Below are positions 4,840-62,213 of a DNA stretch of 64,000 nt, piece after piece. Positions within the stretch are counted from its first letter, which is position 1, and each line of letters starts with the position of its first letter. Origin of the DNA: Prevotella sp. CAG:279. Lineage in GTDB: Bacteria > Bacillota > Clostridia > Lachnospirales > Lachnospiraceae. The stretch is from contig CAVHNP010000001.1 in the NCBI GenBank assembly GCA_963637505.1, positions 36,879 to 100,878 on the forward strand. Direction: 5' to 3'. Below the pieces are notes generated by a model that saw only the letters and a program-made list of their open reading frames with translations, was not told where the DNA came from and searched no databases. Position numbers and translations under genes: made by a program.

Positions 4840-5877
4840 TTATTCCAGATATATACTGCTTCCCTGAAATTCGCTTACATACCCGATCTTCGCAGCCTGG
4901 GGAATCTGCTCCTGCAGTTCCTTCAGCATAGCGTCTGCCTCCTTTTCCGGAAGAGAGATCAGAAGACCGCCTGATGTCTGGGGATCATAGAAAATGTCCT
5001 GCAGGGGCTGGGGAATCTCCCGGGTCAGCTTTACGCCCTTTCCGGCATAGTCCATATTCCGATAGGCTCCGGCAGGGATCAGTCCCATGTTGGCCAGATC
5101 AAAGGCTTCCTCATGATAGGGCACCTGGTCGGAGAGAATATGAATGCTGGTATTGCTTCCCTGGGCCATTTCATAGCTGTGACCCAGAAGGGCAAAGCCG
5201 GTAACATCCGTACAGCTGTTTACCGGATATTTTACCATAATATCCCTGGCTGTTTTATTTAAGCTAGCCATCTGCTGATAGATCTTCTTCATATCCGTTC
5301 TTTCTACCAGATCAACCTTAGCAGAAGTAGTCAGGATTCCGATGCCCAAGGGCTTGGTAAGAATCAGAGCATCTCCGGGTCTGGCACTACTGTTTGTCAG
5401 CACCTTATTCGGATCGACAAAGCCGGAAACAGCCAGACCATAGATTGGTTCTGATCCGGAAATGGTATGACCGCCTGTGATGATCGCTCCGGCCTCATAG
5501 GCCTTTGCATAGCCTCCGCGCAGAATTTCCTGAACCGTTTCCTTCTCCATCTCATCTGTGATACACATGATGTTCAGAGCCAGTTTCGGTTCTCCTCCCA
5601 TGGCATAGACATCGCTTAGGGCATTTGCTGCCGCGATCTGGCCGAAGAGAAAAGGATCATCTACGATCGGCGGGAAAAAATCCGTTGTCTGGATCAGGGC
5701 AGTTGTCTCATTGATCTTATAAACACTGGCATCATCGCTTTTGTCATAGCCAACCAGGAGGCGGGGATCACTATGGGTCTGAAAACCTTCCAAAAGCCTG
5801 GAAAGCGTACCCGCACCAACCTTCGCACCACAACCGGCACAGCCGGCCAGTTTTGTTAGTTTTACTTCTGTTTCCAA
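4840..5877 (-). CDS. selD: Selenide, water dikinase SelD (Cys-type, not a selenoprotein)
   Basis: 345 aa. The N-terminal glycine-rich loop LAGCAGCGAKVG carries Cys, not TGA. An AIR-synthase-like fold pattern is present. Confidence 0.9.
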   Translation of the reverse strand: METEVKLTKLAGCAGCGAKVGAGTLSRLLEGFQTHSDPRLLVGYDKSDDASVYKINETTALIQTTDFFPPIVDDPFLFGQIAAANALSDVYAMGGEPKLALNIMCITDEMEKETVQEILRGGYAKAYEAGAIITGGHTISGSEPIYGLAVSGFVDPNKVLTNSSARPGDALILTKPLGIGILTTSAKVDLVERTDMKKIYQQMASLNKTARDIMVKYPVNSCTDVTGFALLGHSYEMAQGSNTSIHILSDQVPYHEEAFDLANMGLIPAGAYRNMDYAGKGVKLTREIPQPLQDIFYDPQTSGGLLISLPEKEADAMLKELQEQIPQAAKIGYVSEFQGSSIYLE

Positions 5878-5941
5878 TGTATTCTCCTATATAATAAGTA
5901 GTCTCTTATAGGTCTCAGATAGTTTCTATTATAAAAGAATT

Positions 5942-5956
5942 TTTCTAAATCAGAAA
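5942..5956. promoter_or_regulatory. LTTR-type dyad TTTCT-N5-AGAAA (contains T-N11-A) in the selD/lysR divergent region
   Basis: The palindrome tttctaaatcagaaa was read directly. It sits between the divergent selD and LysR starts. Confidence 0.3.
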
Positions 5957-6036
5957 AAAAGATTATAATAAACACTCGATATTTATTAGAAAATATAATA
6001 AAATGAGAAAAAGAGCAAAAGAAAAGGAGGTAAGCC

Positions 6037-6933
6037 ATGGAATTTAAACAGCTTCAATCATTTGCCGCCTTAGTAAAATACAAAAGCTTCAGCAAGGTGG
6101 CCGATAAGCTTTATATCTCTCAGCCAACCGTCAGCACCCACGTACGGGATCTGGAAAAGGAACTGAAGACAAAGCTTGTCATCCGCAGCACCCACAGCGT
6201 GGAGATCACGGAAAAGGGCTATGAGCTCTACAACTTTTCCTGCCACGTCCTTGATATGAGGGATCATTTACTGGAACAATGGTCCAGCGAGGAGAAGGGC
6301 CTTTTGCATATCGCTGCTTCGACCATTCCGGCCGCCTATCTTCTCCCTCAGCTTCTGACCGGCTTTGAAAAGGAGCAGAAAAATGTCAGGGTTATCCTGA
6401 AGCAGGGAGACAGCCGGGACGTCATCGATGGCGTGCTGAAAGGCATTTTTGACCTTGGCTTTTCCGGCATGAAATCCGAGGACAGCGATCTGATCTTTTG
6501 GCCCATCTGCAAGGATCATATGGTTCTGATCACTCCGGTCAAAGAGCCCTTCCTGACCTGGAAGAAGGCGGGTGAGATCCCTGTGAATGAGCTGAAACGG
6601 ATTCCCTTTTTACGGAGAGAGGACGGAAGCGGAAGTCAGAAAAATGCCGACCGTTTTCTGGAGGAGATCGGTCTCAAAGAAGAAGAGCGTATTTCCGCCG
6701 GACAGGTAACAGAGCAGGAGTCTCTGAAAAAACTGGTAGAAGCCGGGATCGGTGTCGCAGTCTCTTCCCAGTGTTCTGTGCAGAGCGAAGCAGATCAGGG
6801 CAAATTACTCACCTTTGAACTGCCCGGCTGTGAAACCCAGAGAAATCTCTATCTCCTCTATCGAAAGGATGAAATTCGCAAATCTTCTGCCGAAGCCTTC
6901 ATCCGTTTTGTAAGAAATGAAGATGTTTTCTAA
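6037..6933 (+). CDS. LysR-family transcriptional regulator (selenium-metabolism-associated by context)
   Basis: 298 aa with an N-terminal wHTH (FSKVADKLYISQPTVSTHVRDLE) and a GGAGG RBS. It is divergent from selD. Confidence 0.85.
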   Translation: MEFKQLQSFAALVKYKSFSKVADKLYISQPTVSTHVRDLEKELKTKLVIRSTHSVEITEKGYELYNFSCHVLDMRDHLLEQWSSEEKGLLHIAASTIPAAYLLPQLLTGFEKEQKNVRVILKQGDSRDVIDGVLKGIFDLGFSGMKSEDSDLIFWPICKDHMVLITPVKEPFLTWKKAGEIPVNELKRIPFLRREDGSGSQKNADRFLEEIGLKEEERISAGQVTEQESLKKLVEAGIGVAVSSQCSVQSEADQGKLLTFELPGCETQRNLYLLYRKDEIRKSSAEAFIRFVRNEDVF

Positions 6934-7128: not shown

Positions 7129-8973
7129 ATGGCAAAAATCTATTTGGCCGATCCCAACAATTGTGATGTCCGGATTGGCACAATGCTGGAAAAATTTGTC
7201 AATAAGGTGCTTAGTTACCCACCGGGAACCTGTCCTCTGACTGTGCAGTATTCACTTTTACTTGCATCTATGAACCAAACCTGCGGAAAATGTGTTCCCT
7301 GCCGTGATGGTCTGCCTCAGCTGTCCACCCTTCTGAAGAAGGTACTGGATGGAGAAGGCACACCGGAAACGGTAGAAGAGATCCGTTTTCTCGCAACCAT
7401 GATCAATGAAAGTGCAGACTGTGCGATCGGATATCAGGCTGCCGCTGAGGTGCTCAAGGGTCTGGATAATTTCAAACTGGAATATGAAAGCCATATTCAT
7501 GAGCATGTCTGTCCTTCTGATGTAGGACAGAAGGTACCTTGTATTAATTTATGTCCGGCACATGTTGATATTCCCGGATACATTGCCCTGGTCGGAGAGG
7601 GACGTTATGCAGATTGTATCAATCTGATCCGCAAAGACAACCCCCTGCCTACCTCCTGTGCAATGATCTGTGAGCATCCCTGTGAAAACAGATGCCGCCG
7701 CCGTCTGATCGATGATGCGATCAATATCCGCGGCCTCAAGAAATTTGCAGTCGATCAGATCCCTGTCGATCAGGTCAAGGTGCCCCGGCACCTGCCTTCT
7801 ACCGGTAAGAGTATCGGTATTATCGGAGGAGGTCCTGCAGGTCTTACCGCCGGATATTTCCTGGCTTTGATGGGACATAAGGTTATCATATATGAGCGCC
7901 AGCCCAAGCTGGGCGGTATGCTTCGTTATGGTATCCCGAATTACCGTTTCCCCAAAGATCGTTTGGATGAGGATATTAACGGTATTCTTTCCGCCGGTGA
8001 TATTGAAGTCAAATATGACACACATATCGATACGGCAGAGAAGATCCGTCAGGTTCAATCAGAGCATGATGCCATCTTTGTTGCGATCGGTGCCCAGGTC
8101 GGCAAAAAACTTCGCTTGGACGGCATCGATGCGGCGAATGTAGAATCCGCTGTAGATATGCTGGATCGTGTCGGAAAAGGAAACCGGCCGGATTATACCG
8201 GCAAGACCGTCTGTGTCATCGGCGGCGGAAACGTTGCCATGGATGCAGCCCGTTCTGCCCTTCGCTGCGGTGCGGATGATGTCCGTGTCATCTACAGAAG
8301 AAGACAGGAGGATATGACGGCTCTTGATTCGGAGATCGAGTCTGCTATGCAGGAGGGCATTGAATTTATGACCCTGCAGGCACCCAAGTCGATCGAAAAG
8401 GACAGCTACGGCAAATGTGCAGCCCTGGTTGTACAGCCCCAGATGATCGGTCCTTATGACAGGGCAGGAAGACCCAGTCCGACAGATGCCAAGAAGGATG
8501 CCCTTCGCATCCCCTGCGATGCGGTTCTGATCGCAGTCGGACAGGATATCGTCTCCGCTCCTTTTGAAGAATTCGGTATGCCGGCAAATCGAGGCGTCTT
8601 CCAGGGGAATCTGGACACCACGATCGATGACATGCCTGGCGTCTTTGTCGGCGGTGACTGTGCGACAGCACCGGCTACGGCAATCCGTGCAATTGCTGCA
8701 GGAAAAGTTGCAGCAAGAAATATAGATGAATATCTTGGTTATCATCATACCCAGCCATGTGATGTAGAAGCGCCCCTTCCGAGGGAGAATACCCGTGTTC
8801 AGATCGGACGCGCAAATATCACGGAAAGGCCGGCTTATATCCGAAAACATGACTTTGAGCATGTAGAAAATGCTTATACCTATGACGAAGCCATGCAGGA
8901 ATCCAGCCGCTGTCTCAGATGTGATCACTTTGGCTGCGGTGTTCTGAAAGGAGGTAGAGATTTTAATGATTAA
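7129..8973 (+). CDS. FDH electron-transfer subunit: NuoF-type 4Fe-4S module fused to GltD-like NAD(P)H/FAD oxidoreductase
   Basis: Start at MAKIYLADP, which has an AAAGAGG RBS and aligns with the start of the paralog at 21242. Motifs are CGKCVPCRDG, CEHPCENRC, GIIGGGPAGL and VIGGGNVAMDAAR. Confidence 0.85.
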   Translation: MAKIYLADPNNCDVRIGTMLEKFVNKVLSYPPGTCPLTVQYSLLLASMNQTCGKCVPCRDGLPQLSTLLKKVLDGEGTPETVEEIRFLATMINESADCAIGYQAAAEVLKGLDNFKLEYESHIHEHVCPSDVGQKVPCINLCPAHVDIPGYIALVGEGRYADCINLIRKDNPLPTSCAMICEHPCENRCRRRLIDDAINIRGLKKFAVDQIPVDQVKVPRHLPSTGKSIGIIGGGPAGLTAGYFLALMGHKVIIYERQPKLGGMLRYGIPNYRFPKDRLDEDINGILSAGDIEVKYDTHIDTAEKIRQVQSEHDAIFVAIGAQVGKKLRLDGIDAANVESAVDMLDRVGKGNRPDYTGKTVCVIGGGNVAMDAARSALRCGADDVRVIYRRRQEDMTALDSEIESAMQEGIEFMTLQAPKSIEKDSYGKCAALVVQPQMIGPYDRAGRPSPTDAKKDALRIPCDAVLIAVGQDIVSAPFEEFGMPANRGVFQGNLDTTIDDMPGVFVGGDCATAPATAIRAIAAGKVAARNIDEYLGYHHTQPCDVEAPLPRENTRVQIGRANITERPAYIRKHDFEHVENAYTYDEAMQESSRCLRCDHFGCGVLKGGRDFND

Positions 8974-11875
8974 TCTTACCATTGATGGCCGACAGCTTCA
9001 GGTTCCGGAGGGATATACTCTCCTGAATGCGGCCCGCCAGAATGGTATTAAGATACCTACTCTCTGTTATCTGGAGAAGGTCAATGAGATTGGCTCCTGC
9101 CGACTCTGTGTTGTAGAAGTGGAAGGAGAAAATAAGCTTTTAACCGCCTGCAATACGATCGCAAGAGACGGCATGATCGTTCATACCATGAGTGATAAGG
9201 TAGTTGCTTACCGAAAGATGGTATTGAATCTGCTTCTTTCCAATCATCATCAGGACTGCTTCTCCTGTGCCTCTAACGGCAAATGTGAGTTACAGGCAGT
9301 CTGTAATGAGTATGGTGTCTATCGTACCAGCTATAGCGGAACCCGATATAAGATCGAGGCCACCGAGAAAAATGCCCATCCTTTCCTGGGATACCGACCG
9401 ACTCTCTGTATTCAGTGTCAGAGATGTGTCGCTACCTGCGATAAAGTAAGCGGAAGAGGAGCGATCCAGCTCAGCAAAACAGGTATGTTCACCGTCATTG
9501 ACGCTCCTTTCGGAGAAAATTGGGAAAATACCACGATTTGCGAATCCTGCGGTAACTGTGCCGAAGCCTGTCCGACAGGCGCCCTTTATAAGAAGGCAGC
9601 CAAGAAATACCGTGAATGGGATCTGAAACGTGTCCGCACGACCTGTCCCCACTGTGCAGTCGGCTGCCAGATGGATCTTTTGGTTAAGAACAACCACATC
9701 GTTGGTGTGGAAGGTGCAGACGGACCGACAAACCATAATAGACTTTGCGTAAAAGGCCGTTTTGGTTCCTATAAGTTCGTAGAGTCTGGCGACCGTCTGA
9801 CAGATCCTCTGATCAAGGATAGAGAAACCGGCGAATTCAGAAAAGCAAGCTGGGATGAAGCACTTGATCTGGTTGCAAGTAAGTTTACTGCGATCCGAGA
9901 CGAATACGGCGGAGATGCACTTGCCGGATTTGCCTGCTCAAGAAGTGCAAATGAAGATATTTATATGCTTCAGAAAATGGTCCGCACAGTTTTCCAGACA
10001 AACAATACGGATAACTGTGCCCGTGTCTGACATGCCCCTACCGTCTCCGGTCTGGCGACAACATTGGGCTCCGGTGCGATGACGAACACCATTGCAGACA
10101 TTACCCAGGAATCTGACGTGATCATGATCGTTGGATCCAACTCTGAAGAAGCACATCCGGTACTCGGAATGCAGCTGAGAGCAGCTGTAAGAAGAGGTGC
10201 AAAGCTGATCGTAGCTGACCCGCGTGAGATCGACCTTGCAAAGAAAGCCAATGTGCACCTGAAATTACGCCCCGGTACAAACGTTGCCTTCATCAACGCC
10301 CTCCTTCATGTCATTATTGAAGAGGGAATGACAGATGAGGAATTCATCAAAGAACGTACTGAGGTAGAAGAATACGAAAAACTGAAAAAACTGGTTGAGA
10401 AATATACCCCTGAATATTCCGCTAAGATCTGTAATCTGGATCCGGACGATATTCGTGAGGCAGCCCGCCTTTATGCAAAGGCCGATAAGGCTCCGATCAT
10501 TTACTGTCTGGGTGTTACAGAGCATTCCACCGGTACAGAGGGCGTTATGTCCCTTTCCAATCTGGCCATGATAACCGGAAAACTCGGTCGTCCGGGCTGC
10601 GGTGTAAACCCGATCCGAGGTCAGAACAATGTACAGGGTGCCTGCGATATGGGTGCTATGCCGACCGACTTTACAGGATATCAGAAGGTTCATATCCCTG
10701 AGAATCGTGAGAAGTTTGAGAAAGCATGGGGCGTGAAGCTGAATCCGACCCCGGGTACAAAGGCAACCGAATGCTTCCCTGCTATGATCGAAGGCAAGAT
10801 CAAGGGACTCTTTATCTTCGGCGAGGATCCGATGCGTACCGATCCCGATACCCATCATGTTCTCCATGCCTTAGAAAGCCTTGATTTCCTGGTTGTAGAT
10901 GAGCTCTTTATGACAGAGACCGCAAAACTGGCTGATGTGGTTCTGCCGGGTCGCTCCTATGCGGAGAAGGAAGGAACCTTCTCTAATACAGAGCGTCGTG
11001 TGCAGCGTATCCGTAAGGCCATCACGGTTCCCGGCAACAGCCGTCTGGATACAGATATCTTTACCGATATCATGAACAGAATGGGTTATCCGCAGCCTTA
11101 CCTGACTGCAGCTGAGATCATGGATGAGATTGCTTCCCTGACACCGAGCTTTACCGGTATCTCCCATGCGAGACTGGATAGCGAGGAGATTGGCGGAAAC
11201 GGCATTCAGTGGCCCTGTCCTTCCAAGGATCATCCGGGTACACCGATCATGCATGTCGGCATGTTCAGCCGCGGAAAAGGTAACTATTACCTGGCAGAAT
11301 ATAAGCCTTCTCAGGAGCTTCCGGATGATGACTATCCGCTGATCATGATGACAGGCCGAAATCTCTATCACTACAATGCGATGGCGATGACAGATAAGAC
11401 ACCGGGACTGATGGAAATCTCCGGACACTCTTACATTGAGGTCAATACAAAGGATGCGGAAAAAGCCGGCATCCACGACGGAGAGCGTATTCGCGTTTCT
11501 TCCCGCCGAGGAACCATTTCCTCCGAGGCTCGCGTTTCGGATAAGACCAATCCGGGTGAATGCTGGATGCCTTTCCACTTCCTGGATGGTAATTCAAACT
11601 GGCTGACCAATGATGCACTCGACAGTATTGCCCGTGCACCGGAATATAAGGTTTGTGCCGTTAAGATCGAAAAGATTCCGGAAGAGGAAGCTTACACCAA
11701 GGATGGTGTATATATTACCCAGGCAATGATCGCCGAGAAGCGGAATCAGATCTATGCAGAACAGCTCGCAATTCCGACCCGCTGTGCAAACGGTGAGAGC
11801 GTAGCCATCACCAGAAGTGTGGATGATTATTCTACCCTGGTTACAGAAGGCTGTGACGGATGCTGCGGTGAGTAA
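8966..11875 (+). CDS. fdhA: Formate dehydrogenase alpha subunit, selenocysteine-containing (969 aa, U at codon 355)
   Basis: Track ORFs 8966..10030 and 10064..11875 are in the same frame and separated only by TGA 10028-10030. The Cys paralog reads NNTDNCARV-C-H at the same position. It has N-terminal 2Fe-2S/4Fe-4S clusters (CRLCVVEV, CIQCQRCVATC, CESCGNCAEACP, TTCPHCAVGC) and a MopB catalytic domain. Confidence 0.9.
10031..10069 (+). promoter_or_regulatory. Bacterial SECIS hairpin directly 3' of UGA-355
   Basis: Eighteen nt after the UGA there is an apical GGUCU loop closed by CC/GG. The stem continues GUC/GAC, and an outer GCCC/GGGC helix spans 10034-10069. I recall the same UGA-to-GGUC spacing for the E. 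coli fdhF SECIS. Confidence 0.65.
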
Positions 11876-13692: not shown

Positions 13693-15630
13693 ATGAAACA
13701 TATTGTTTTGGGTACAGCCGGTCATATCGATCACGGCAAGACCCTCCTTACAAAAGCCCTGACCGGCATTGATACCGACCGCCTGGCAGAAGAGAAGAAG
13801 CGGGGCATTACCATCGAGCTGGGCTTTGCCCCCATGACCTTATCCGACGGAAATAAGATCAGCCTTGTTGACGTCCCCGGCCATGAAAAATTCGTCAAGA
13901 CCATGATGGCCGGCGCCTCCGGTATCGATGGTGTTTTGCTTATTATTGCTGCAGATGACGGTATTATGCCCCAGACCAGGGAACATCTGGATATCATTCG
14001 TCTCCTTCACGTACAAAAGGGTCTTCTTGTGATCACAAAATGCGATCTTGCAACAGAGGAAAGAATTTCCGAGGTAAAAGCTTCTCTCAAAGAGCTTACA
14101 AAGGGAAGCTGCCTGGAAAATGCCCCCATCTGCGAAGTATCTGCTCTGACCGGAAGCGGTATGGAGGAGCTGAAAAAAGAAATCGAAGCTCTGGTTGCCC
14201 AATTAGAAGAAAGAAAGGGCAATAAACCGGCCAGACTGCAGGCCGATCGGGCCTTTCCCGTCAGCGGCTTCGGTACGGTTGCAACCGGCACCTTAACAGA
14301 GGGCACTCTGCATGTAGGAGACAGTATCGAAATCTATCCGCAAAAAGAAGTCTGCCAGATCAGAAGTCTGCAAAATCATAATAAAAACGAGGATTCTGCC
14401 TTTGCAGGATCCAGAACAGCCATGAGTTTTTCCGGCTTGAAAAAGGATCTTCAGATCAAAGGCTCTGCCATTGCGGAGCCGGATTCCATGATCGTAACAA
14501 ATTTTCTGGATGTTTTCCTGCAGATCACACCGGATTGCAAGTATCAGATCAAGAATTCCTCCCAGCTTCATTTTTTCCATGGAACAGAAGAGGTCATAGC
14601 CAAGCTGCGCCTTCTGGACTGCGATAAACTCCTGCCCGGACAAAGCGGCTATGCCCAGATGAAACTCTCCAAGGGAATTGCTGTCCGCCTGGATGATTCC
14701 TTTCTTCTCCGCTTCTTTTCTCCGGTGATCACAATCGGAGGCGGAAAGATCCTATCCTGCCAGGGTAAGCGGCTTCGCCGTCATTATCAGCCGGTTCTGG
14801 AAAGACTGAAAAAACTAAATAGTAGAGATGAGGCCGAAAAGCTGGAGATCCGCATCGAAGAAGCCGGCATTCTTCCTATTTCCAGGCATCTGCTCCGGAC
14901 CAGAGCCAATCAGTCAGAAGAAGAATATCGCCCTGCTGAAGAAAAGCTTCTGCAAAGCGGCAGAATTTTTGAGATAAGAGACGGAAAACTGATCAGCCAG
15001 TCCGCCATTGAAGAAAGATGGGAAAAATGCAGAGAGCTTCTGCAGGCTTTTCATAAAAGCTATTCCCTCCAACCCGGCATGAAGATTGCCGAATGGAGAA
15101 AAAGACTCTTTCCGGAAGAAGGGGCTCCTTGTGATCAGCTCTTAGAGATCTGGTGCGAAAAAGGATTGCTGAAAGCAGAAAATGCCTATCTTTCCCTGGC
15201 TGATTTCGAGCCGGAATTCACCCAGCAGCATAAGATCATGCAAAGAAAGCTCCTGCATTATTATAAGGATGCCTGGCTCATGCCTCCGGAACAGAAGATC
15301 GTGGATAAAAAATTCGAAAAAAGGGGACCGATCTATAAGCAGATCCATATCAACATGCGAATGAACGGCCTGCTGATCGGTCTTTCGCCCAGCTATTATG
15401 TACATCACGAGGCTTATGCAGAGGCCCTGCGCATCTTCACTGAGCTATGTGAAAAGCAGGGCGGAAGTGCCAGTCTGGCGCAATTTCGAACAGCAGCGGA
15501 GATCTCCAGAAAATATTCCCAGCTTTTCCTGGAGTATTGGGATAAACACGGCATTAGCCGCAGGGTGGGGGATGAGCATGTTTTGATTTCAAAAGGCCGA
15601 GATGTTCTGCCCAGGATCAAAAGCCGTTGA
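13693..15630 (+). CDS. selB: Selenocysteine-specific elongation factor SelB
   Basis: GTPase motifs GHIDHGKT, DVPGHEKF and TKCD, plus long C-terminal winged-helix domains. The last 11 codons and the stop lie inside repeat copy A. Confidence 0.9.
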   Translation: MKHIVLGTAGHIDHGKTLLTKALTGIDTDRLAEEKKRGITIELGFAPMTLSDGNKISLVDVPGHEKFVKTMMAGASGIDGVLLIIAADDGIMPQTREHLDIIRLLHVQKGLLVITKCDLATEERISEVKASLKELTKGSCLENAPICEVSALTGSGMEELKKEIEALVAQLEERKGNKPARLQADRAFPVSGFGTVATGTLTEGTLHVGDSIEIYPQKEVCQIRSLQNHNKNEDSAFAGSRTAMSFSGLKKDLQIKGSAIAEPDSMIVTNFLDVFLQITPDCKYQIKNSSQLHFFHGTEEVIAKLRLLDCDKLLPGQSGYAQMKLSKGIAVRLDDSFLLRFFSPVITIGGGKILSCQGKRLRRHYQPVLERLKKLNSRDEAEKLEIRIEEAGILPISRHLLRTRANQSEEEYRPAEEKLLQSGRIFEIRDGKLISQSAIEERWEKCRELLQAFHKSYSLQPGMKIAEWRKRLFPEEGAPCDQLLEIWCEKGLLKAENAYLSLADFEPEFTQQHKIMQRKLLHYYKDAWLMPPEQKIVDKKFEKRGPIYKQIHINMRMNGLLIGLSPSYYVHHEAYAEALRIFTELCEKQGGSASLAQFRTAAEISRKYSQLFLEYWDKHGISRRVGDEHVLISKGRDVLPRIKSR

Positions 15631-15743
15631 AAAACCCCAGTGCTTAGCAAGAGGTGCATGGAACATGTGCCTCGAGCTTAGCATCTGCTGGGTTTTTCCC
15701 CGAGCGAAAGCGTGCTTTAGATCCGGCAGAATCATTCTCGGCC
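15595..15743 (-). repeat. Long-hairpin intergenic repeat, copy A (149 nt, inverted relative to copies B and C)
   Basis: Bounded by ggccgaga...tctcggcc. Its reverse complement aligns to copy C with 10 substitutions over 147 positions (hand alignment). Confidence 0.85.
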
Positions 15744-15812
15744 TTTGTGGCTCTAGGAATAACCATCCACACAATCCTGTAACCTCGTATTTAAGTAAAT
15801 TCTCCAAGGTTT

Positions 15813-16691
15813 TCAAGTATACTGCTCATAAACCTGCGTCCGGCATTTGCCCAGAAGGGTCAGTCCGTATTCCTCCGCCAGCTCGATCGCCGCATCGGAT
15901 ACGCTGGCTTTGCTTGCAAGGATAGGGATTCCGGCCTGAATTGCCTTCATAGCCATATCGGTCGGGATTCGTCCGCTGGAAAAGGCGATGCACTTTTTCG
16001 GATCGATTCCATGTCTTAGGGCATAGCCGATCGCTTTATCCAGGGCATTATGCCTGCCGATGTCTTCACAGGTAAAGAGGATTTCCCCTTCCCGCATGAG
16101 AAAACAGCTGTGTGTCGCCCCCGTCTGGGAATGGAGCGGCATTCCCTCTTCAAAACGCTTCGAAAGGGCATAGATCCAGTCGGCTTTCCAGTCGATGGGG
16201 TCTATTTTTTTTAGGGGAAGATCTTTTACAAAATAATCGTTTAAGATCCGGTTTCCGGTACAGCAGGAGGGTGTCACTTCTACATAGGCTTCCTCTGCTT
16301 TTTTCGCCTCCGGGATATCCCCATCCCTTGTCAGCCTTCCATCACCGTCTTTTTCCCTTCTAAAGGACTGCTCTGTACTGTCTTCTCCGCCTTCCTTTAA
16401 GGTTACAAAGGCCTGTTTGCCATATCTGCAGATATAGATCTCCTCCACATCCTCCGCTCCGGAGATGATTCCCTCTGTCAGAAGCCTTCCTAAAACAAGT
16501 TCGGTAAGCTGGGTTGGAATGCAGATCAGCTTCATGGTATGCAGATTGTTAATATAGACATCAATTGCATGCTCAACAAGAACAGACCGCCTTTTGATTG
16601 CGGTCTGTCCATCTGAGCCTACAGCTCTGTATTCTGTTTCTTTGATTGTTTCCGGTTGAAATTCAGTGTATAATTCACGAATTTTCATCAC
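15813..16691 (-). CDS. fdhD: Formate dehydrogenase accessory sulfurtransferase FdhD
   Basis: 292 aa with a C-terminal FdhD signature region (GATHSCFL..., CEDIGRHNALDKAIGYAL). It overlaps the fdhA(Cys) stop by 17 nt. Confidence 0.85.
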   Translation of the reverse strand: MMKIRELYTEFQPETIKETEYRAVGSDGQTAIKRRSVLVEHAIDVYINNLHTMKLICIPTQLTELVLGRLLTEGIISGAEDVEEIYICRYGKQAFVTLKEGGEDSTEQSFRREKDGDGRLTRDGDIPEAKKAEEAYVEVTPSCCTGNRILNDYFVKDLPLKKIDPIDWKADWIYALSKRFEEGMPLHSQTGATHSCFLMREGEILFTCEDIGRHNALDKAIGYALRHGIDPKKCIAFSSGRIPTDMAMKAIQAGIPILASKASVSDAAIELAEEYGLTLLGKCRTQVYEQYT

Positions 16692-19407
16692 TTATCTTCT
16701 CCACCTTGATCGCGCATACCTTATATTCCGGAATCCTGCAGATGGGGTCTAAGGCAGAGTTTGTCAGCCAGTTTGCATTGCCATCCGGGAAGTGGAAGGG
16801 CATCCAGGTTTCTCCTTCCGAAACCTTCTTTCCGACACGGGCAGTGGACTGAATACTTCCTCGTCTGGAAGAAACCCTTACCAGCTCTCCGTCCTTGATT
16901 CCGATTCTTGCGGCATCCATTTCGTTGATCTCGATAAAGGATTTTCCGGAAATCTCCATCATACCCGGAGTACGGCCTGTCATGGCACGGGTTGTGTAAT
17001 GATAGAGAATACGGCCTGTCATCAGATAGAGGGGATAATCCTTATCCGGAAGCTCGATCGGGTCTGAATATTCTGTCGGATAGAGCCAGCCGAGACCACG
17101 GGAGAATTTACCCACATGCATAATCGGTGTGCCCGGATGATCCTTGGTCGGGCAGGGCCACTGCAGGCCGTTTCCGGCAACCTCCTCGCTATCCAGCCTC
17201 TCGTGGGAAATACCGCCGAAGCTCGGTGTGAGAGAAGCAACCTCATCCATGATCTGGGCAGAAGTCAGATGCGGCTGCGGATAACCCATACGATTCATCA
17301 GATCAATGATGATATCGGTATCCAGACGGATATCGAATTCCGGATCCTTGGTCAGATCAACCGCCTTACGAACACGGCAGACCCTTCTTTCTGTATTGGA
17401 GAAGGTTCCTTCCTTTTCCGCATAGCTCATACCTGGCAGGATAACATCTGCGAATTCTGCTGTTTCCGTCATGAAAAGCTCCTGCACAACAAAGAAGTCC
17501 AGGCTGGAAAGAGCCTTACGGATATGAGTTGTATCCGGATCTGTAACCACAGGATCCTCTCCATAAATATAAAGTCCGCGGATTTCCTTCTTAATTGCTT
17601 TCGGGAATACATCGGTTGCAAAGGTACCGATATTCGGATCCAGTTCCACGCCCCAGGCCTTTTCGAATTTTGCACGGATGGCATCATCTGTTACATCCTG
17701 ATAGCCCGGGAACTTATTCGGCATAGCGCCCATATCGCAGCCACCCTGTACATTGTTCTGGCCACGAAGAGGGTTGACACCACAGCCGGACCGACCGATC
17801 TTACCGCAAAGCATAGCCATATTGGACATGGACATAACGCCAACCGTACCATTCGAGTGCTCTGTTACACCCAGACAGTAAATGATCGGTGCCTTGTCTG
17901 CTGTGGCATACATACGGGCAGCCTCGATCAGCTGATCCTTATCGATATGGCAGGCCTCTGCAACAACTTCCGGTGTATAATCCTTTACGATCTCCTTGAG
18001 AGTCTCATAGCCTTCTGTTCTTTCTGCAATGAACTTTTCGTCTACAAGACCTTCCTCGATCATAACATGCATCATACCGTTTGCGAACATAATATCTGTT
18101 CCCGGCTTTAATTTCAGATGAATATCGGCATACTTGGTAAGGCCGATATCTCTCGGATCTACAACGATCAGCTTGGTTCCCTTTCGAACCGCTTCACGGA
18201 TCTGCATACCGACTACCGGATGAGCTTCTTCCGGATTGGAACCAACCAGAAGGATACAGTCTACATCATGAGTGATATCGTAGATCGGATTTGTCATGGC
18301 ACCGGATCCGAGGGTAATGGCCAGTCCGGATACGGAAGCAGAATGGCAGACGCGGGCGCAGTTATCGGTATTATTATTTCCGAAGCAGCATCTTACCATC
18401 TTCTGAACCATGTAGATATCCTCATTCGGGGAACGGGAGCAGGCAAAACCGGCCAGAGAGCTGGAGCCATACTTCTTCTTGATCTCCATGAATTTAGAAG
18501 CGACCAGATCCAGGGCTTCATCCCAGGAAGCTCTTTCAAATTCACCTGTTTCCTTATTCTTGATCAAAGGATATTTGATACGATCCTTGGAATGAACAAA
18601 ATCAAAGCTGGCGGAACGTCCCTTGACACAGAGTCTGCCATGGTTGCTTGGTCCGTCTGCAGGCTCACAATCTACGATTTTATTATCTTTGACGATCAGA
18701 TCATACTGACAGCCTGTTGCGCAGTGGGGACAGGTGGTACGTACACGCTTGATTTCCCATTCACGATATTCTTTTCTTCTTTTTTCTTTTAAAGCACCGG
18801 TCGGACAGGCCATTGCACAGTTACCGCAGGATTCGCAAAGGGTATTCTTCCAGTTTTCTCCAAAGGGAGCATCGATTACGGTAAACATACCTGTCTTATC
18901 CAGTTCGATCGCGCCTCGTCCGGAAACATGATCACAGGTGCTGACACAGCGCATACAATGGATGCAAAGATTGGGATCATAGCTGAGGAAGGGATGCTCA
19001 TCCTTGGGTGCCGGATTGATCTTATAGCGGGTTCCCTCATAGCTGGTATAGTTTACGCCATAGTCATTGCAATATCTCTGCAGATCACAGATACCGTTAT
19101 TCGGACAGGAAAAACAATCCTGATGGTGGTTGGAGAGGAGAAGATCGAGCACGGTTTTTCTTGCTGCTACAACTCTCTCTGACATAGTATCGATCACCAT
19201 TCCTTCCTGCACTAAGGTATTGCAGGCCGGCGGCATTTTTTCCATTCCTTCTACATCAACAATACAAAGGCGACAGGAGCCGATCTCGTTTACTCCCTCC
19301 AGATAGCAGAGGGTCGGGATCTCGATGCCGGCGGATCTGGCTGCCTTTAAGATGGTCGTTCCTTCTTCTGCCTCAATGGCAATTCCGTTTATCGTTACAT
19401 GAATCAT
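16675..19407 (-). CDS. fdhA: Formate dehydrogenase alpha subunit, Cys-type paralog (910 aa)
   Basis: Colinear with 8966..11875 and shares blocks IPTLCYLE, NEIGSCRLC, LLLSNHHQDCFSC, GMFTVIDAPFGENW, RVRTTCPHCA, ASWDEALDLVASKF and NNTDNCARV. Cys replaces Sec. Confidence 0.9.
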   Translation of the reverse strand: MIHVTINGIAIEAEEGTTILKAARSAGIEIPTLCYLEGVNEIGSCRLCIVDVEGMEKMPPACNTLVQEGMVIDTMSERVVAARKTVLDLLLSNHHQDCFSCPNNGICDLQRYCNDYGVNYTSYEGTRYKINPAPKDEHPFLSYDPNLCIHCMRCVSTCDHVSGRGAIELDKTGMFTVIDAPFGENWKNTLCESCGNCAMACPTGALKEKRRKEYREWEIKRVRTTCPHCATGCQYDLIVKDNKIVDCEPADGPSNHGRLCVKGRSASFDFVHSKDRIKYPLIKNKETGEFERASWDEALDLVASKFMEIKKKYGSSSLAGFACSRSPNEDIYMVQKMVRCCFGNNNTDNCARVCHSASVSGLAITLGSGAMTNPIYDITHDVDCILLVGSNPEEAHPVVGMQIREAVRKGTKLIVVDPRDIGLTKYADIHLKLKPGTDIMFANGMMHVMIEEGLVDEKFIAERTEGYETLKEIVKDYTPEVVAEACHIDKDQLIEAARMYATADKAPIIYCLGVTEHSNGTVGVMSMSNMAMLCGKIGRSGCGVNPLRGQNNVQGGCDMGAMPNKFPGYQDVTDDAIRAKFEKAWGVELDPNIGTFATDVFPKAIKKEIRGLYIYGEDPVVTDPDTTHIRKALSSLDFFVVQELFMTETAEFADVILPGMSYAEKEGTFSNTERRVCRVRKAVDLTKDPEFDIRLDTDIIIDLMNRMGYPQPHLTSAQIMDEVASLTPSFGGISHERLDSEEVAGNGLQWPCPTKDHPGTPIMHVGKFSRGLGWLYPTEYSDPIELPDKDYPLYLMTGRILYHYTTRAMTGRTPGMMEISGKSFIEINEMDAARIGIKDGELVRVSSRRGSIQSTARVGKKVSEGETWMPFHFPDGNANWLTNSALDPICRIPEYKVCAIKVEKISDENS

Positions 19408-21242
19408 TCGTCTCTGCCTCCTTTCAATACACCACAGCCAAAGTGGTCACATCTCAGACAGCGGTTTGCTTCCTGCATGGCTTCTGCATGGGTCAGTTCT
19501 ACTTCCACGCCTTCAAAATCACATTTTCTGATGAAGGCCGGACGCTCCGTTACATTAACCCTTCCGGTCGGAACACGGTTATTTTCCTTCGCCGGCGGTA
19601 CCTCCACATTACAGGGGAGCTTATGATGATAGCCAAGGTATTCATCGATATTGTGGGCAGCAACCTTTCCTGCCGCAATGGCGCGAATAGCAGTAGAGGG
19701 GCCTGTTGCACAGTCACCTCCGACAAATACGCCTTCCATATCCTCCACTCTGGTAGTAAGAGAGGCCTCAAAAACGCCTCTGTTTGCCTTCATGCCGAAT
19801 TCTTCAAAAGGAGCGGAGATGATATCCTGGCCGACAGCGATCAGAACGATCTCACAGGGAACCCGGATCTCATCCTTCTCTGTATCCATAGGGCTGGGTC
19901 TTCCGGCACGATCATAAGGTCCGATCATCTGCGGCTTAACAAAGAGGGCAGTGGTATTGCCATTTTCATCCGCTTCAATGGACTTTGGTGCCATCAGGGT
20001 CATAAATTCAATACCCTCCTGCATGGCGGATTCGATCTCAGACTCTAATGCCGTCATATCTTCCTTTCGACGACGGTAGATAACACGGACATCCTTTGCT
20101 CCGCATCTGACAGAAGAACGGGCCGCATCCATGGCAACGTTTCCGCCACCAATGACACAGACGGTCTTGCCGGTATAATCCGGCTTTATGCCATTGCCGA
20201 TGCCATCCAGCATATCTACCGCAGAGTCAACACCCTTGGCATCTACATTGTCCAGACGAAGCTTTTTACCCTCCTGAGCGCCGATCGCAACAAAGAGGGC
20301 ATCATATTTTTCATGTAATTCCGCAATTTTTTCCGCTGTATCAATATGGGTATTGTATTTTACCTCGATATCACCTGCAGACAGAATGGCATTAGTATCC
20401 TCCTCCAAGCGGTTCTTCGGGAAACGGTAATTCGGAATACCATAGCGAAGCATGCCGCCCAGCTTATCATGGCGCTCATAGACAGTCACCTTATGTCCCA
20501 TCTGACCTAAGAAATAAGCACAGGTCAGACCTGCCGGGCCTCCGCCGATCACACCGATATGCTTGCCGGTGGAAGGATTTGCCTTTGGAACCTCGACCTT
20601 ATCTGCTGCGACCTGGTCGACTGCATATTTTTTCAGTCCTCGGATATTTACGGCATCATCGATCAGATTTCTCCTGCATCTTTCCTCACAGGGATGCTCA
20701 CAGATCATGGCACAGGCCGTCGGGAAAGGATTGTCCTTCCGGATCATATTAATAGAAGCGGCATAGTCCTCCTGACCGATCAGGGCAATATAGGCCGGTA
20801 CATCTACATGAGCCGGACACTGATGGATACAGGGCACCATCTGACCAGATTCACTCGGACAGACATGCTTCTTGATATGACTTTCGTATTCCTCTGCAAA
20901 GGTATCCAGTCCAGCCAGAACCTCCGCTGCGGACTGATAACCGATCGCACAATCAGAGGACTGGGTGATCATGGTTGCCAGACTTCTCATCTGATCTAAG
21001 GTCGTTTCATCAGCATCTCCATCCAGGATCTTCTTGAGAAGATTGGACAGCTGCGGCAGACCGTCCCTACAGGGTACACACTTTCCGCAGGTCTGGTTCA
21101 TGGAAGCCAGAAGAAAAGAATACTGTACCGTCAAAGGGCAGGTTCCCGGCGGATAAACCTCTACCTTTGTACTAAACTTATTCAAGATATTTTTAATTTT
21201 TACATCCGTGCTTTTGGGATCAGCTAGATATAGTTGACTCAT
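19404..21242 (-). CDS. FDH electron-transfer subunit paralog (NuoF-type FeS + GltD-like oxidoreductase)
   Basis: 612 aa, colinear with 7129..8973 and with the same motifs. It overlaps the fdhA(Cys) start by 4 nt. Confidence 0.85.
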   Translation of the reverse strand: MSQLYLADPKSTDVKIKNILNKFSTKVEVYPPGTCPLTVQYSFLLASMNQTCGKCVPCRDGLPQLSNLLKKILDGDADETTLDQMRSLATMITQSSDCAIGYQSAAEVLAGLDTFAEEYESHIKKHVCPSESGQMVPCIHQCPAHVDVPAYIALIGQEDYAASINMIRKDNPFPTACAMICEHPCEERCRRNLIDDAVNIRGLKKYAVDQVAADKVEVPKANPSTGKHIGVIGGGPAGLTCAYFLGQMGHKVTVYERHDKLGGMLRYGIPNYRFPKNRLEEDTNAILSAGDIEVKYNTHIDTAEKIAELHEKYDALFVAIGAQEGKKLRLDNVDAKGVDSAVDMLDGIGNGIKPDYTGKTVCVIGGGNVAMDAARSSVRCGAKDVRVIYRRRKEDMTALESEIESAMQEGIEFMTLMAPKSIEADENGNTTALFVKPQMIGPYDRAGRPSPMDTEKDEIRVPCEIVLIAVGQDIISAPFEEFGMKANRGVFEASLTTRVEDMEGVFVGGDCATGPSTAIRAIAAGKVAAHNIDEYLGYHHKLPCNVEVPPAKENNRVPTGRVNVTERPAFIRKCDFEGVEVELTHAEAMQEANRCLRCDHFGCGVLKGGRDE

Positions 21243-28496: not shown

Positions 28497-28694
28497 GTTA
28501 TGGTATTCCCAATTGAATTATTTACTCCGATCCTTTTGGCCTAAGGCAGAACTGCTTCTATGATCTCTGCTATGGTGACTGGGACGGGATTTCTGGAATC
28601 CCCGGGGTGGCAGAGGAAACTAAGCTGCCTTCCATTTATCGAAAAGGAGCAAAGAAAAAGCAGCCCCAGGTTGCTCTTTTATTCTGCATATTCA

Positions 28695-38532: not shown

Positions 38533-38595
38533 AGACAGCCTCCTTTAAACTATTCGCGAAAGTCTTGTTTTACGAATAGTTATGTCGTTTGCAAA

Positions 38596-38634
38596 GAAAA
38601 GCGGAGAAATCTGTTTGGCCTTTTCTCCGCTTTT
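38596..38634. terminator. Bidirectional-looking terminator after the DUF1275 gene
   Basis: gcggagaaa / tttctccgc stem flanked by A- and T-runs. Confidence 0.6.
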
Positions 38635-38671
38635 CCTCTGCATTTCTTTTGTATTCCTTTGTTTTTCCCTT

Positions 38672-41804: not shown

Positions 41805-41903
41805 TATAACTAATGAATTTTACCACAATCAGGCGGAATGCACCAGAGTAACGCAAGGAAACAGGCTTTGGAGCTAATAAGAATTGAGATGCATTGAGAA
41901 TAA

Positions 41904-42133
41904 GGCTGAGAATGATTCTGCCGGATCTAAAACACGCTCTCGCTCTATATCGTATCGCCCTGGCGATGCGATGCACGCGAGGCGCCATCGTGCAAAGCAC
42001 GATTTAAAATGGCGCCGGAGTCCCGAACGGAAAAACCCAGCAGATGCTAAGCTCGAGGCACATGTACCATGCACCTCTTGCTAAGCACTGGGGTTTTTCA
42101 ACGGTTTTTGATCCTGGGCAGAACATCTCAGCC
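41904..42133 (+). repeat. Long-hairpin intergenic repeat, copy B (230 nt, carries a nested 83-nt insertion)
   Basis: Bounded by ggctgaga...tctcagcc. Outside 41946-42028 it is colinear with copies A and C. Confidence 0.85.
41946..42028 (+). repeat. Nested GC-rich hairpin module inside copy B
   Basis: The first 31 nt match 12151-12181 at 27 of 31 positions. It contains the hairpins AUCGC-CCUG-GCGAU and GGCGCCAU...AUGGCGCC. Confidence 0.65.
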
Positions 42134-42156
42134 CTTTTTAATTACAAAACATCCTG

Positions 42157-46435: not shown

Positions 46436-46552
46436 ACTGCTTTTCTCCCGATTGGTTTAACCCTAACATTTTGATTTTATCAAACCCATGGCATATGCTC
46501 AATTATTTTACGGTTTAAAAACAAGGAAAAATATGGAGGTTAGTCCTATACG

Positions 46553-56202: not shown

Positions 56203-56270
56203 GGCTTGGGGCTTCGCATTTTGAGAAGAGCTAAACAACTTAGTTAACTCACATAAACCAATATGAAAAA

Positions 56271-56417
56271 GACGAGAATGATTCTGTCGGATCTAAAACA
56301 CGCTCCCGCTCGGGGAAAAACCCAGCAGATGCTAAGCTCGAGGCGCATGTTCCATGCCCCTCTTGCTAAGCACTGGGGTTTTTCAACGGTTTTTGATCCT
56401 GGACAGAACATCTCGTC
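56271..56417 (+). repeat. Long-hairpin intergenic repeat, copy C (147 nt)
   Basis: Bounded by gacgaga...tctcgtc. It lies between the convergent aspartate kinase and sbcC genes. Confidence 0.85.
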
Positions 56418-56488
56418 TTTTGCTTTACTTTTGCAAGATAGCAAAAGCTCCGGCTGAGTATTTCTGTTAAAAATTCAGACACTCGCTC

Positions 56489-61233: not shown

Positions 61234-62213
61234 CTATACAAGCAAAAATTCTTTCTCTTTTATGATCTTTTCAATTTCTTCCGTACTCTTTTTTGTTGCC
61301 AAGGCGATCTGCTCTAAAGAGAACTTATTTTCATACATGTTCAGAATGATATTCTCTGTCGTTTTTTCTGTTGCTCTTTCTTCGATTCCTGTACTCAGAT
61401 TACACATAATTCTCACGTCCTCTCTGAACTCATTGTTGATTGGGATATTATATTCCTGTTCTATGATTTCTAACTTTTCCTCTTCTTTCAGATCACTGGA
61501 AAGCAAGGTTCCTATCAAACGATGCATCTCATAAGCTTTCTCCTGTTCCGGTATCTCATTCGTAATTCCAATCATTACGATATTCAGCAAATCCAGATTG
61601 CCCTTCCAGTCATAGGGCGTCAGCATCTCATCCTTGGTAAGATGAATGTGACTTAAACTGTTACAATCCATATTCATACAGATCCAGATGCTGAATACCT
61701 GTTTGATATCATCATAATTTGAATTCACGAAGTCTCTTTCTTTTTGCGACGAAACAAATCTGCTCACATAAAAAATAGCTCTGTTTAATATTTTATATGC
61801 AGATGGCTCATCCTTCTGGCACTCTATGTTCACGATGATCTGTGACAATCCATTTTTCATGCGTACGTAGAAAATGATATCAAACCGTATCAAGCCCTCA
61901 TTTATTTCGGCACTTTCCGTATTGAAGCCAATGATTCTTTCTCCTGCCTTATTCGCTTGCCCTGTATTGGTCAGTCCCGGTTCTATCGGATGACTCCTAC
62001 CTGCGGTTCTCCCTCGATATATTGCACCACATTTTCTGGCTTCATTCCTTTAAATTCATCAACTGTCTTGACTAGAATGTGTGCCAGTATCATTTTCTGT
62101 GCCAATAATCTTTTTACACGTGCATCATACTGTGCCTTGTCTCCCGCTGCGTTTACGGCATTTGCTATTTCAGTATTCATCCAGTAGACCTCCTTTTGTG
62201 TTGCATATAGCAT
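61234..62213 (-). pseudogene. PD-(D/E)XK nuclease family transposase / Rpn-type protein, interrupted by a frameshift near 61980-61990
   Basis: The 76-aa ORF (61983..62213) and the 219-aa ORF (61234..61893) are two parts of one protein. The downstream frame stays open back to ...PGLTNTGQANKAGERIIGFNTESAEINEGL, immediately after the upstream stop. Confidence 0.65.

Follow-up and report, generated by a model that had tools for sequence, protein, structure and literature searches.

We analyzed a 64,000-nt stretch of DNA from Prevotella sp. CAG:279 (GCA_963637505.1, contig CAVHNP010000001.1, forward strand, positions 36,879-100,878; GTDB lineage Bacteria; Bacillota; Clostridia; Lachnospirales; Lachnospiraceae). 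We refer to this whole stretch as the window, and coordinates are positions within it unless a contig is named. The subject is the 3′ end of selB, where the reading frame runs into a long hairpin repeat (copy A) that probably inserted there. Genes for selA and tRNA-Sec lie upstream of selB, and fdhD is downstream and convergent. The genome encodes a selenocysteine (Sec)-dependent fdhA, with a TGA at 10028-10030 followed by a Sec insertion sequence (SECIS) element with a GGUC loop. The features at the junction are listed here, with the evidence for each in brackets.

13693..15630, plus strand: selB coding sequence, 645 amino acids (open reading frame (ORF) list; Pfam; PDB 1LVA match up to I632)
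15591..15746, plus strand: copy A of the repeat from A-run to T-run, approximately 156 nt (repeat search, alignments, covariance model, fold)
15591..15628, plus strand: lower-stem 5′ arm, or "chassis", with the A-run, a variable G+C clamp and the conserved end GAGATGTTCTG (consensus fold)
15595..15630, plus strand: eleven element-encoded codons, GRDVLPRIKSR, and TGA, wholly in the lower-stem 5′ arm (sequence and translation)
15629..15698, plus strand: upper hairpin module P2, 70 nt (-39 kcal/mol, z = -5.7)
15699..15712, plus strand: junction with a small side hairpin, GC-GNRA-GC (alignments)
15713..15746, plus strand: lower-stem 3′ arm with the conserved end CAGAATCATTCTC, then clamp and T-run
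15813..16688, minus strand: fdhD, which converges on selB and has its stop codon 66 nt past the repeat (ORF; Pfam FdhD-NarQ)

The selB gene in the window is intact. Its product has the full Pfam architecture (GTP_EFTU, domain 2, SelB beta-barrel, SelB-wing_2 and SelB-wing_3), and the translated C-terminus reads ...GISRRVGDEHVLISKGRDVLPRIKSR*. Native sequence encodes residues 1-634, and the repeat supplies residues 635-645 together with the stop codon. The SelB-wing_3 match ends at residue 631, before the GRDVLPRIKSR tail, and the solved C-terminal fragment of Moorella thermoacetica SelB (1LVA) aligns up to I632 of the window protein, which is position 256 of 258. The TGA of selB (15628-15630) spans the point where the lower stem meets the upper hairpin, and every full copy of the repeat has the same TGA at that junction. 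An earlier sequence-only reading had marked 15595-15743, which is the core of copy A, as a hairpin repeat that supplies the last 11 codons of selB and its stop codon. This is borne out by the position of GRDVLPRIKSR and TGA in the 5′ arm and by the fold of the element (z = -9.5). The same reading had the repeat start exactly at codon 635, which is too precise, as the boundary is ambiguous by 4-5 nt. Similarity between copies already begins at the A-run AAAA (15591-15594), and codon 634 is also AAA in the nearest relative with this locus. Because that AAA is shared and an A-run precedes every copy, the junction can be placed only within 15590-15595.

Copy A folds as one long hairpin with a predicted energy of -86.4 kcal/mol, compared with -48.9 +/- 3.9 kcal/mol in shuffled sequences. 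Each copy has an A-run (3-5 A) before it and a T-run (2-7 T) after it, and the two runs pair with each other. Within these runs is a variable G+C clamp (GGCC/GGCC, GGCT/AGCC, GAC/GTC or GC/GC), and inside the clamp are the conserved ends GAGATGTTCTG and CAGAATCATTCTC. These ends pair with two bulges, and the entire lower stem is inverted-complementary. The outer ends given for the repeat are ACAAAAnnTGTTGATG. P2 consists of a 30-pair stem topped by a GGA/GGAAC apex, and the loop of the side hairpin is GAAA, GAGA, GGGA or GAGA by copy.

A covariance model of the repeat, R1, was built from four copies and matches copy A at 15588-15750 with 186.6 bits. The consensus structure has 65 pairs with 98.1% of cells paired, and nine pairs are changed on both sides (3.5 +/- 1.3 in shuffles, none of 500 reaching nine; 0-2 in slid-partner controls). 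Helix 1, the lower stem, has 34 pairs, is 99.3% paired and contains eight of the nine double-sided changes. The structure of the repeat is thus kept by compensatory changes. In six of eight copies, the predicted fold of the sense strand is 5-10 kcal/mol more stable than that of the antisense strand, due to G-U pairs.

The repeat belongs to a family. A 54-nt probe from 15595 has two matches in the window and none in 100 shuffles, and the second copy has two mismatches. In the repeat-finder output, 15592-15746 matches 56267-56421 at 92% and, with an interruption, 41902-42147 at 93%. Model R1 finds four copies (A, B, C and a collapsed "mini" copy), which range from 48 to 244 nt and occupy unrelated loci in the 64 kb. 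In addition to copy A, the window contains the following copies and one site that is filled elsewhere.

41897..42140, minus strand: copy B, chassis plus P2 plus the 83-nt module X, 93% identity (module X itself at 41947-42029, minus strand)
46534..46551, minus strand: unoccupied site (alignment of the window with contigs L011, L013 and L014)
56263..56425, minus strand: copy C, between the convergent genes for SbcC and aspartate kinase, 92% identity
62371..62418, minus strand: mini copy, 48 nt (covariance model; fold -24.7 kcal/mol, z = -3.0)

Copy B is 68 nt after the rubrerythrin gene and downstream of that gene's own terminator. Its module X is inserted at the side-hairpin junction, carries two hairpins (GGCGCCAT...ATGGCGCC and ATCGCC-AGG-GCGAT) and is also present in L011 (10695-10780). 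The mini copy consists of the 5′ and 3′ ends of the repeat, fused without intervening sequence at an ATCA microhomology; its fold, a 12-bp stem with a U-run after it, looks like that of a classic terminator. We rejected the idea that the G+C clamp is an older terminator with the element inserted in its loop, as copies B and mini share GGCT/AGCC at different loci.

Outside the window and its species, a metagenome-assembled genome (MAG) labeled Oscillospiraceae (contig L003) has one full copy that is approximately 90% identical, with paired substitutions, after a V-type ATPase operon. It also has a 73-nt shorter relative with the same ends, 350 nt from the full copy. This full copy was the one real extra copy in a scan of a genome collection with a 20-mer core (a collection that does not include the source genome); the other match, in L002, was by chance. 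No copies were found in metagenome scans (with a core 21-mer and with both conserved ends and a gap) or in one viral scan, and blastn against plasmid and phage collections gave no match to the repeat. Rfam 15 has no match at the gathering threshold and, with E up to 10, only meaningless microRNA and long non-coding RNA matches. A protein search with the peptide from the open frame of the element gave no match, and no further solo repeat ends were found in the window. The repeat family is previously undescribed; overlap with gene ends is already known from other bacterial mini-repeats.

The nearest relative with the selB locus, a contig of GCA_963626635.1 (L001) located by protein search with the C-terminal half of SelB, has an empty site. 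Its gene order is that of the window (fdhA, selA, selB, then convergent fdhD and fdhA), and its SelB is approximately 81% identical to the window protein in the shared part. Homology runs through ...GISRRVGDEHVLI(R)K and is followed by TKAE*, so that the protein ends ...GDEHVLIRKTKAE (...VLIRKTKAE). There is no repeat, and the spacer between the stop codons of selB and fdhD is only 38 nt long. We rejected the possibility that the L001 selB end is an eroded copy, based on a covariance-model score of 5.6 bits for the selB-fdhD spacer and a fold z of -0.6. GGAATAA (15756-15762, in frame with selB) could be the displaced original stop region of selB, but we dropped the idea because its similarity to the L001 stop region is not significant (p = 0.38). 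The sequence-only reading had the element land in, or replace, the 3′ end of selB, and either may be the case.

To place the tail in a wider set of proteins, we searched 1.84 billion representative proteins exhaustively with HMMER, which gave 150 SelB homologues, and compared the C-terminal ends of 149 in an alignment. Beyond the K634 column, these proteins have 0 to 23 amino acids; the stretch is absent in 63 and longer than in the window protein in only four. No tail resembling GRDVLPRIKSR was found among the 149. The sequence-only reading had proposed that repeat-free orthologues with this tail would show it to be ancestral, and there are none in L001 or among the 149 homologues. The GRDVLPRIKSR tail is thus repeat-encoded and not ancestral selB sequence, as that reading had suggested. 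The region beyond the last winged-helix domain appears, from these alignments, to be without length or sequence constraint, and the insertion was probably tolerated because it falls there, where SelB tails vary freely.

Tolerance had instead been attributed to open frames, which all copies were said to keep on both strands. This explanation does not hold. One of three frames per strand is open, and selB reads another frame, which has three stops. A 150-nt frame is open by chance with a probability of (61/64)^50, approximately 0.09, or approximately 0.25 for at least one of three frames, and the open plus- and minus-strand frames are correlated because the element is palindromic. The open frames are neither unusual nor relevant to tolerance.

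The family also varies within the species. Exact-protein look-ups of the rubrerythrin, Fur-family and DUF3793 proteins of the window gave five conspecific MAGs (GCA_963660315.1, GCA_963611805.1, GCA_963648675.1, GCA_963649105.1 and GCA_963641495.1) and several Logan contigs. Copies C and mini are identical in GCA_963649105.1. At site B, the window allele has the lower stem, P2 and the 83-nt module X, three MAGs have the lower stem and X without P2, and one Logan contig has only the last 21 nt of the 3′ end. P2 is therefore optional in the family, being missing from these conspecific alleles and from the collapsed copy. The L013 copy has a shorter variant of module X, and this variant, together with X without P2 in conspecifics, indicates that the inner modules behave as interchangeable cargo.

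At the 46.5-kb site, the window and L011 have no insertion, the conspecific L013 carries one, and L014 retains a collapsed remnant. The L013 insertion is approximately 210 nt and carries the repeat in the opposite orientation with a different inner module (covariance-model match at L013 6076-6210). It is larger than the hairpin (6030-6260) and has outer inverted arms, ACAAAAAGTGTTGATG ... CATCAACATGTTTTGTAC. TATAGGA(C) direct repeats flank it and a third TATAGGA(C) is inside, which suggests a nested or composite element. On the time scale of the species, members of the family are gained, lost, remodeled and collapsed.

The flank downstream of copy A (15751-15769, CTCTAGGAATAACCATCCA) resembles the 46.5-kb target (46534-46551, minus strand, CTATAGGACTAACC-TCCA) at 16 of 19 positions. 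The shuffle p value is 0.006 in one of six comparisons, and the likeness may reflect a target-site preference.

Other conspecific data bear on the junction itself. A Logan contig from another sample (L025) covers the stop codon of fdhD and the 66-nt spacer and ends 24 nt into the 3′ arm of copy A. Several short-read contigs break inside the repeat, as expected of multi-copy DNA. Exact-protein look-ups for SelB, the long-start rubrerythrin and 5-formyltetrahydrofolate (5-FTHF) cyclo-ligase gave no conspecific match, and those for FdhA-N, FNT and FdhD gave short Logan contigs only.

The sequence-only reading had the repeat probably serving as the selB transcription terminator. We predict that the transcribed hairpin may act as a bidirectional terminator or 3′-end protector between selB and fdhD; this role is plausible based on its sequence. 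The prediction draws on the A-run, G+C clamp and U-run design, the mini copy, site C, and the lack of a convincing native terminator in the L001 selB-fdhD spacer. After the base stem GGCCGAGA/UCUCGGCC, copy A has UUUGUGG, copy C has UUUUU, the L003 copy has UUUUUUU and the mini copy has UUUUAUU. The outer stem of R1 cross-matches ordinary terminators. At exactly the place of copy C, a related species (L004, aspartate kinase 98% identical) has an ordinary bidirectional terminator, AAAAACGGGGCTGTCGCATGCGACAGCCCCGTTTTTTTTT; the window has only the repeat there. The resemblance to intrinsic terminators includes the G+C-rich stem base, the A-run before and U-run after it, and the location after stop codons and between convergent genes. 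Unlike intrinsic terminators, which usually have 5-14 pairs, the repeat has approximately 65 pairs with bulges and a branch.

We consider it likely that copy A is a non-coding hairpin repeat of the miniature inverted-repeat transposable element (MITE) or REPIN type, a REPIN being a hairpin of two repetitive extragenic palindromic (REP) sequences, which inserted in the last codons of selB and re-capped SelB. Hairpin repeats would have spread through an uncultured Clostridia lineage, in which they appear to be still varying, and one copy would have come to lie within the last few codons of selB. The selB frame would then leave native sequence at approximately codon 634, enter the 5′ arm for 11 codons and stop at the element's own TGA at the junction of the lower stem and upper hairpin. 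A short unconserved tail (TKAE in L001) would have been replaced by 11 presumably neutral residues, GRDVLPRIKSR. Once transcribed, the hairpin (approximately 65 bp, with the G+C base clamp and the flanking A-run and U-run) could serve as a bidirectional terminator or 3′-end protector. The anatomy of the repeat, its family, the empty orthologous site, the differences in occupancy between genomes and the lack of conservation of the tail were observed directly; we infer an insertion, as opposed to another rearrangement, and any role at the RNA level is predicted.

As in MITEs, the copies are small, non-coding and dispersed (48-244 nt, no consistently coding frame), have terminal inverted repeats and vary in occupancy (the selB site is filled in the window and empty in L001; the 46.5-kb site also varies). 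As in REPINs, the conserved ends are inverted and pair to form a hairpin, in which compensatory changes are seen. Neither arm, however, is a REP palindrome, and no gene for a REP-associated tyrosine transposase (RAYT) was seen in the window.

Several observations weigh against this interpretation. The selB-side (5′) junction is seen in the window only. The empty selB site is found in one close relative, where selB (4996-6917) is split by a frameshift into two called ORFs of 434 and 206 amino acids, which may reflect either an error in assembly or decay of the gene. Target-site duplications are not seen at copies A, B or C, nor at the mini and L003 copies. The sole direct repeat, TATAGGA(C) at the L013 site, fits a deletion between its copies just as well as an insertion, and transposition is therefore not proven. 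No cognate autonomous element or transposase with matching ends was found in the window or in the phage and plasmid collections. With regard to termination, the U-run after copy A (UUUGUGG) is weak, and a simple consensus terminator scan did not call copy A, because of its stem length. Copy B and the L013 insertion directly follow intact native terminators, which indicates that the repeat is not needed as a terminator there. The L013 copy is antisense to both neighboring genes, and this rules out an orientation rule in which the element has the same sense as the upstream gene.

An alternative is that the repeat is a functional structured RNA, such as a cis-acting 3′-end module or a small RNA, with selection on the RNA fold, and that the overlap with selB is a by-product of the location of that RNA gene. 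We think this is unlikely, even though the strong covariation in the lower stem, a side-hairpin loop that stays GNRA (GAAA, GAGA, GGGA), the better fold of the sense strand in six of eight copies and the approximately 90% identity to the copy in a different MAG (L003) would all fit such an RNA. Compensatory changes are also found in REPIN-type DNA repeats (PMC3116915), and the GNRA variation consists of A/G transitions only, in four sequences. Rfam has no match even at E = 10, and one copy is antisense to its flanking genes. Whole-module differences and collapse by deletion within the species are typical of unstable palindromic DNA and not of an RNA gene under conservation.

The hairpin could also lower SelB output. 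RNase III would cut the lower stem that contains the stop codon, and the non-stop mRNA would yield a product tagged for degradation. The lower stem is a near-perfect helix of approximately 34 bp with a 5′ arm that spans codons 634-645 and the TGA, and such cleavage and decay have been suggested for the Coxiella gene enhC where QMITE2 extends it (PMC5896051). However, an intact selB, a Sec-dependent fdhA, tRNA-Sec and selA are all kept, so SelB must still be made, and we give this scenario a small chance.

A further possibility is that the family is more than selfish DNA and forms a modular and mobile "3′-end cassette" in which the lower stem and the A- and U-runs form a portable bidirectional terminator or RNA-stabilizing hairpin under selection at the RNA level. 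Such a cassette could overwrite native gene ends and replace terminators (selB/fdhD, ask/sbcC), and P2 and X could tune its behavior. The covariation, the G-U bias to the sense strand and the GNRA-capped side arm hint at this, and we regard it as speculative and rather improbable.

The UGA of selB directly precedes the -39 kcal/mol hairpin P2, and together they could mimic a SECIS element that either binds SelB for autoregulation or allows Sec read-through, adding 16 codons. SelB-binding SECIS-like elements regulate selAB in E. coli. The fdhA SECIS elements in the window and L001 are small stems with a CGGUC apical loop, whereas P2 is far longer and has no GGUC-type apical loop, and on this basis we rejected it as a bacterial SECIS element. 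The UGA and P2 also occur in copies B and C at unrelated non-coding places and are thus a property of the repeat and not of selB, making SECIS mimicry very improbable. It is just as hard to credit a repeat-induced misjoin in assembly, suggested by the short-read contigs that break inside the repeat, given that the independent Logan assembly (L025) has the identical fdhD-spacer-repeat junction, the selB frame is continuous with a clean end, and copies C and mini are identical in another genome. The view of the tail as ancestral selB sequence, with the other copies as duplicated selB 3′ ends, has nothing in its favor beyond the overlap itself and is effectively refuted, as L001 has neither tail nor repeat, the 149 homologues have no such tail, the other copies have no selB flank beyond an 8-nt ATGTTTTG, and the repeat also occurs in another MAG beside V-ATPase genes.

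Correia elements of Neisseria and enterobacterial repetitive intergenic consensus (ERIC) sequences are imperfect palindromes of 100-160 nt that are transcribed with neighboring genes. Their reported effects are on termination, mRNA stability and RNase III processing, and in some cases they are reported to overlap the ends of ORFs. In Correia elements there is a TA duplication, and the inverted-repeat ends are defined. We found no sequence similarity between the repeat and Correia or ERIC elements (no Rfam match).

The closest parallels to an insertion-type repeat at a gene end are QMITE1 and QMITE2 of Coxiella burnetii, hairpin-forming repeats that overlap the last 1-50 bp of functional genes such as pntAA, mutT, nagZ, recN and ruvB; in one Coxiella strain, QMITE2 gives the C-terminal 33 residues of EnhC, with the stop just beyond the element (PMC5896051). 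The repeat described here is also small and present in many copies, has inverted ends, overlaps a gene 3′ end, and occurs as full-size and small deletion forms (PMC5896051). It differs in that its sequence is unrelated and its host is in the Clostridia and not the Gammaproteobacteria. QMITEs have recognizable direct repeats, and most copies of the window family show none. The stop codon is inside the element in the window, and internal modules are swapped between alleles.

REPIN hairpins have conserved inverted ends and compensatory changes (PMC3116915). Like REPINs, or REP doublets, the repeat has inverted ends and a spacer in one hairpin, shows compensatory changes and has an extragenic position close to gene 3′ ends (PMC3116915), and it has collapsed or singlet derivatives that arise by internal deletion. 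In contrast to REPINs, its arms are not themselves REP palindromes. No RAYT-like gene was seen in the window, and the known REPIN-RAYT systems are mainly from Proteobacteria, whereas the host of this repeat belongs to the Clostridia.

Rickettsia palindromic elements are likewise palindromic repeats in coding genes, which they do not destroy; as summarized in a later paper, translation continues through them in frame, and they become internal peptide insertions (Ogata et al. 2000, cited in PMC5896051). In selB, unlike these, the frame reaches a TGA after 11 codons, with two further stops beyond it, so that the element truncates and re-caps the protein, and a Rickettsia-type read-through element was rejected for that reason.

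The family is a hairpin repeat of uncultured gut or rumen-type Clostridia, and its position has consequences for annotation. The C-terminus of SelB appears to be chimeric in this lineage, and automated pipelines may mis-trim it or miss the repeat origin of 11 residues. In evolutionary terms, unconstrained tails after the last domain and spacers between convergent genes may absorb palindromic repeats, and here the empty and filled states can both be compared. The rapid module swaps and the collapse to terminator-like stubs may offer a compact model of palindrome decay and terminator substitution. The understanding of selenocysteine decoding and of mobile elements is unchanged by the finding.

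Some additional observations concern the copies and their surroundings. The 8-mer ATGTTTTG is present at 15581-15588 and 42140-42147, 6-7 nt upstream of the A-run of copies A and B. Near copy A it consists of native selB codons (EHVL) that are conserved in L001, and it also occurs in the outer end CATCAACATGTTTTGTAC of the L013 insertion (about 6240-6250); it could be a target motif, part of the element or a coincidence. A terminator-like hairpin at 38592-38639, AAAAGCGGAGAAATCTG...TTTTCTCCGCTTTT, scores 15 bits with the repeat model and has ends faintly like those of the repeat. Either this is a collapsed copy that has degenerated with age or it is an ordinary terminator. In L003, an inverted pair (ATATGCCATGACCTTTGAGGC at 2127-2150 and GCCTCAAAGTCATGGCATAT at 2365-2390), approximately 200 nt apart, lies between the two repeat copies.

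Gene order relative to L004 breaks exactly at copy C (56203-56488 vs L004 3259-3370). Beyond copy C, the window contains sbcC and sbcD, and L004 contains nadA, nadC and nadB. Copy C may mark a rearrangement junction. Beside the mini copy is a 219-amino acid ORF (61234-61893, minus strand) with no Pfam match (best E = 0.08, to an unrelated family). Its IVNIECQ motif is reminiscent of PD-(D/E)XK Rpn/transposase-like nucleases, an unconfirmed resemblance.

The selB locus is flanked by two paralogous formate dehydrogenase clusters (7417-11623 and 16747-20954) with 72-82% DNA identity. They are inverted around tRNA-Sec, selA, selB and fdhD, and the layout is the same in L001. The left fdhA is broken by the in-frame TGA (10028-10030) with its GGUC-loop SECIS element, and the right fdhA is an uninterrupted 910-amino acid ORF. 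A molybdenum cofactor (Moco)/tungsten-cofactor riboswitch (28513-28665, 68 bits) is upstream of molybdenum-cofactor-related genes, consistent with a formate dehydrogenase and selenium island.

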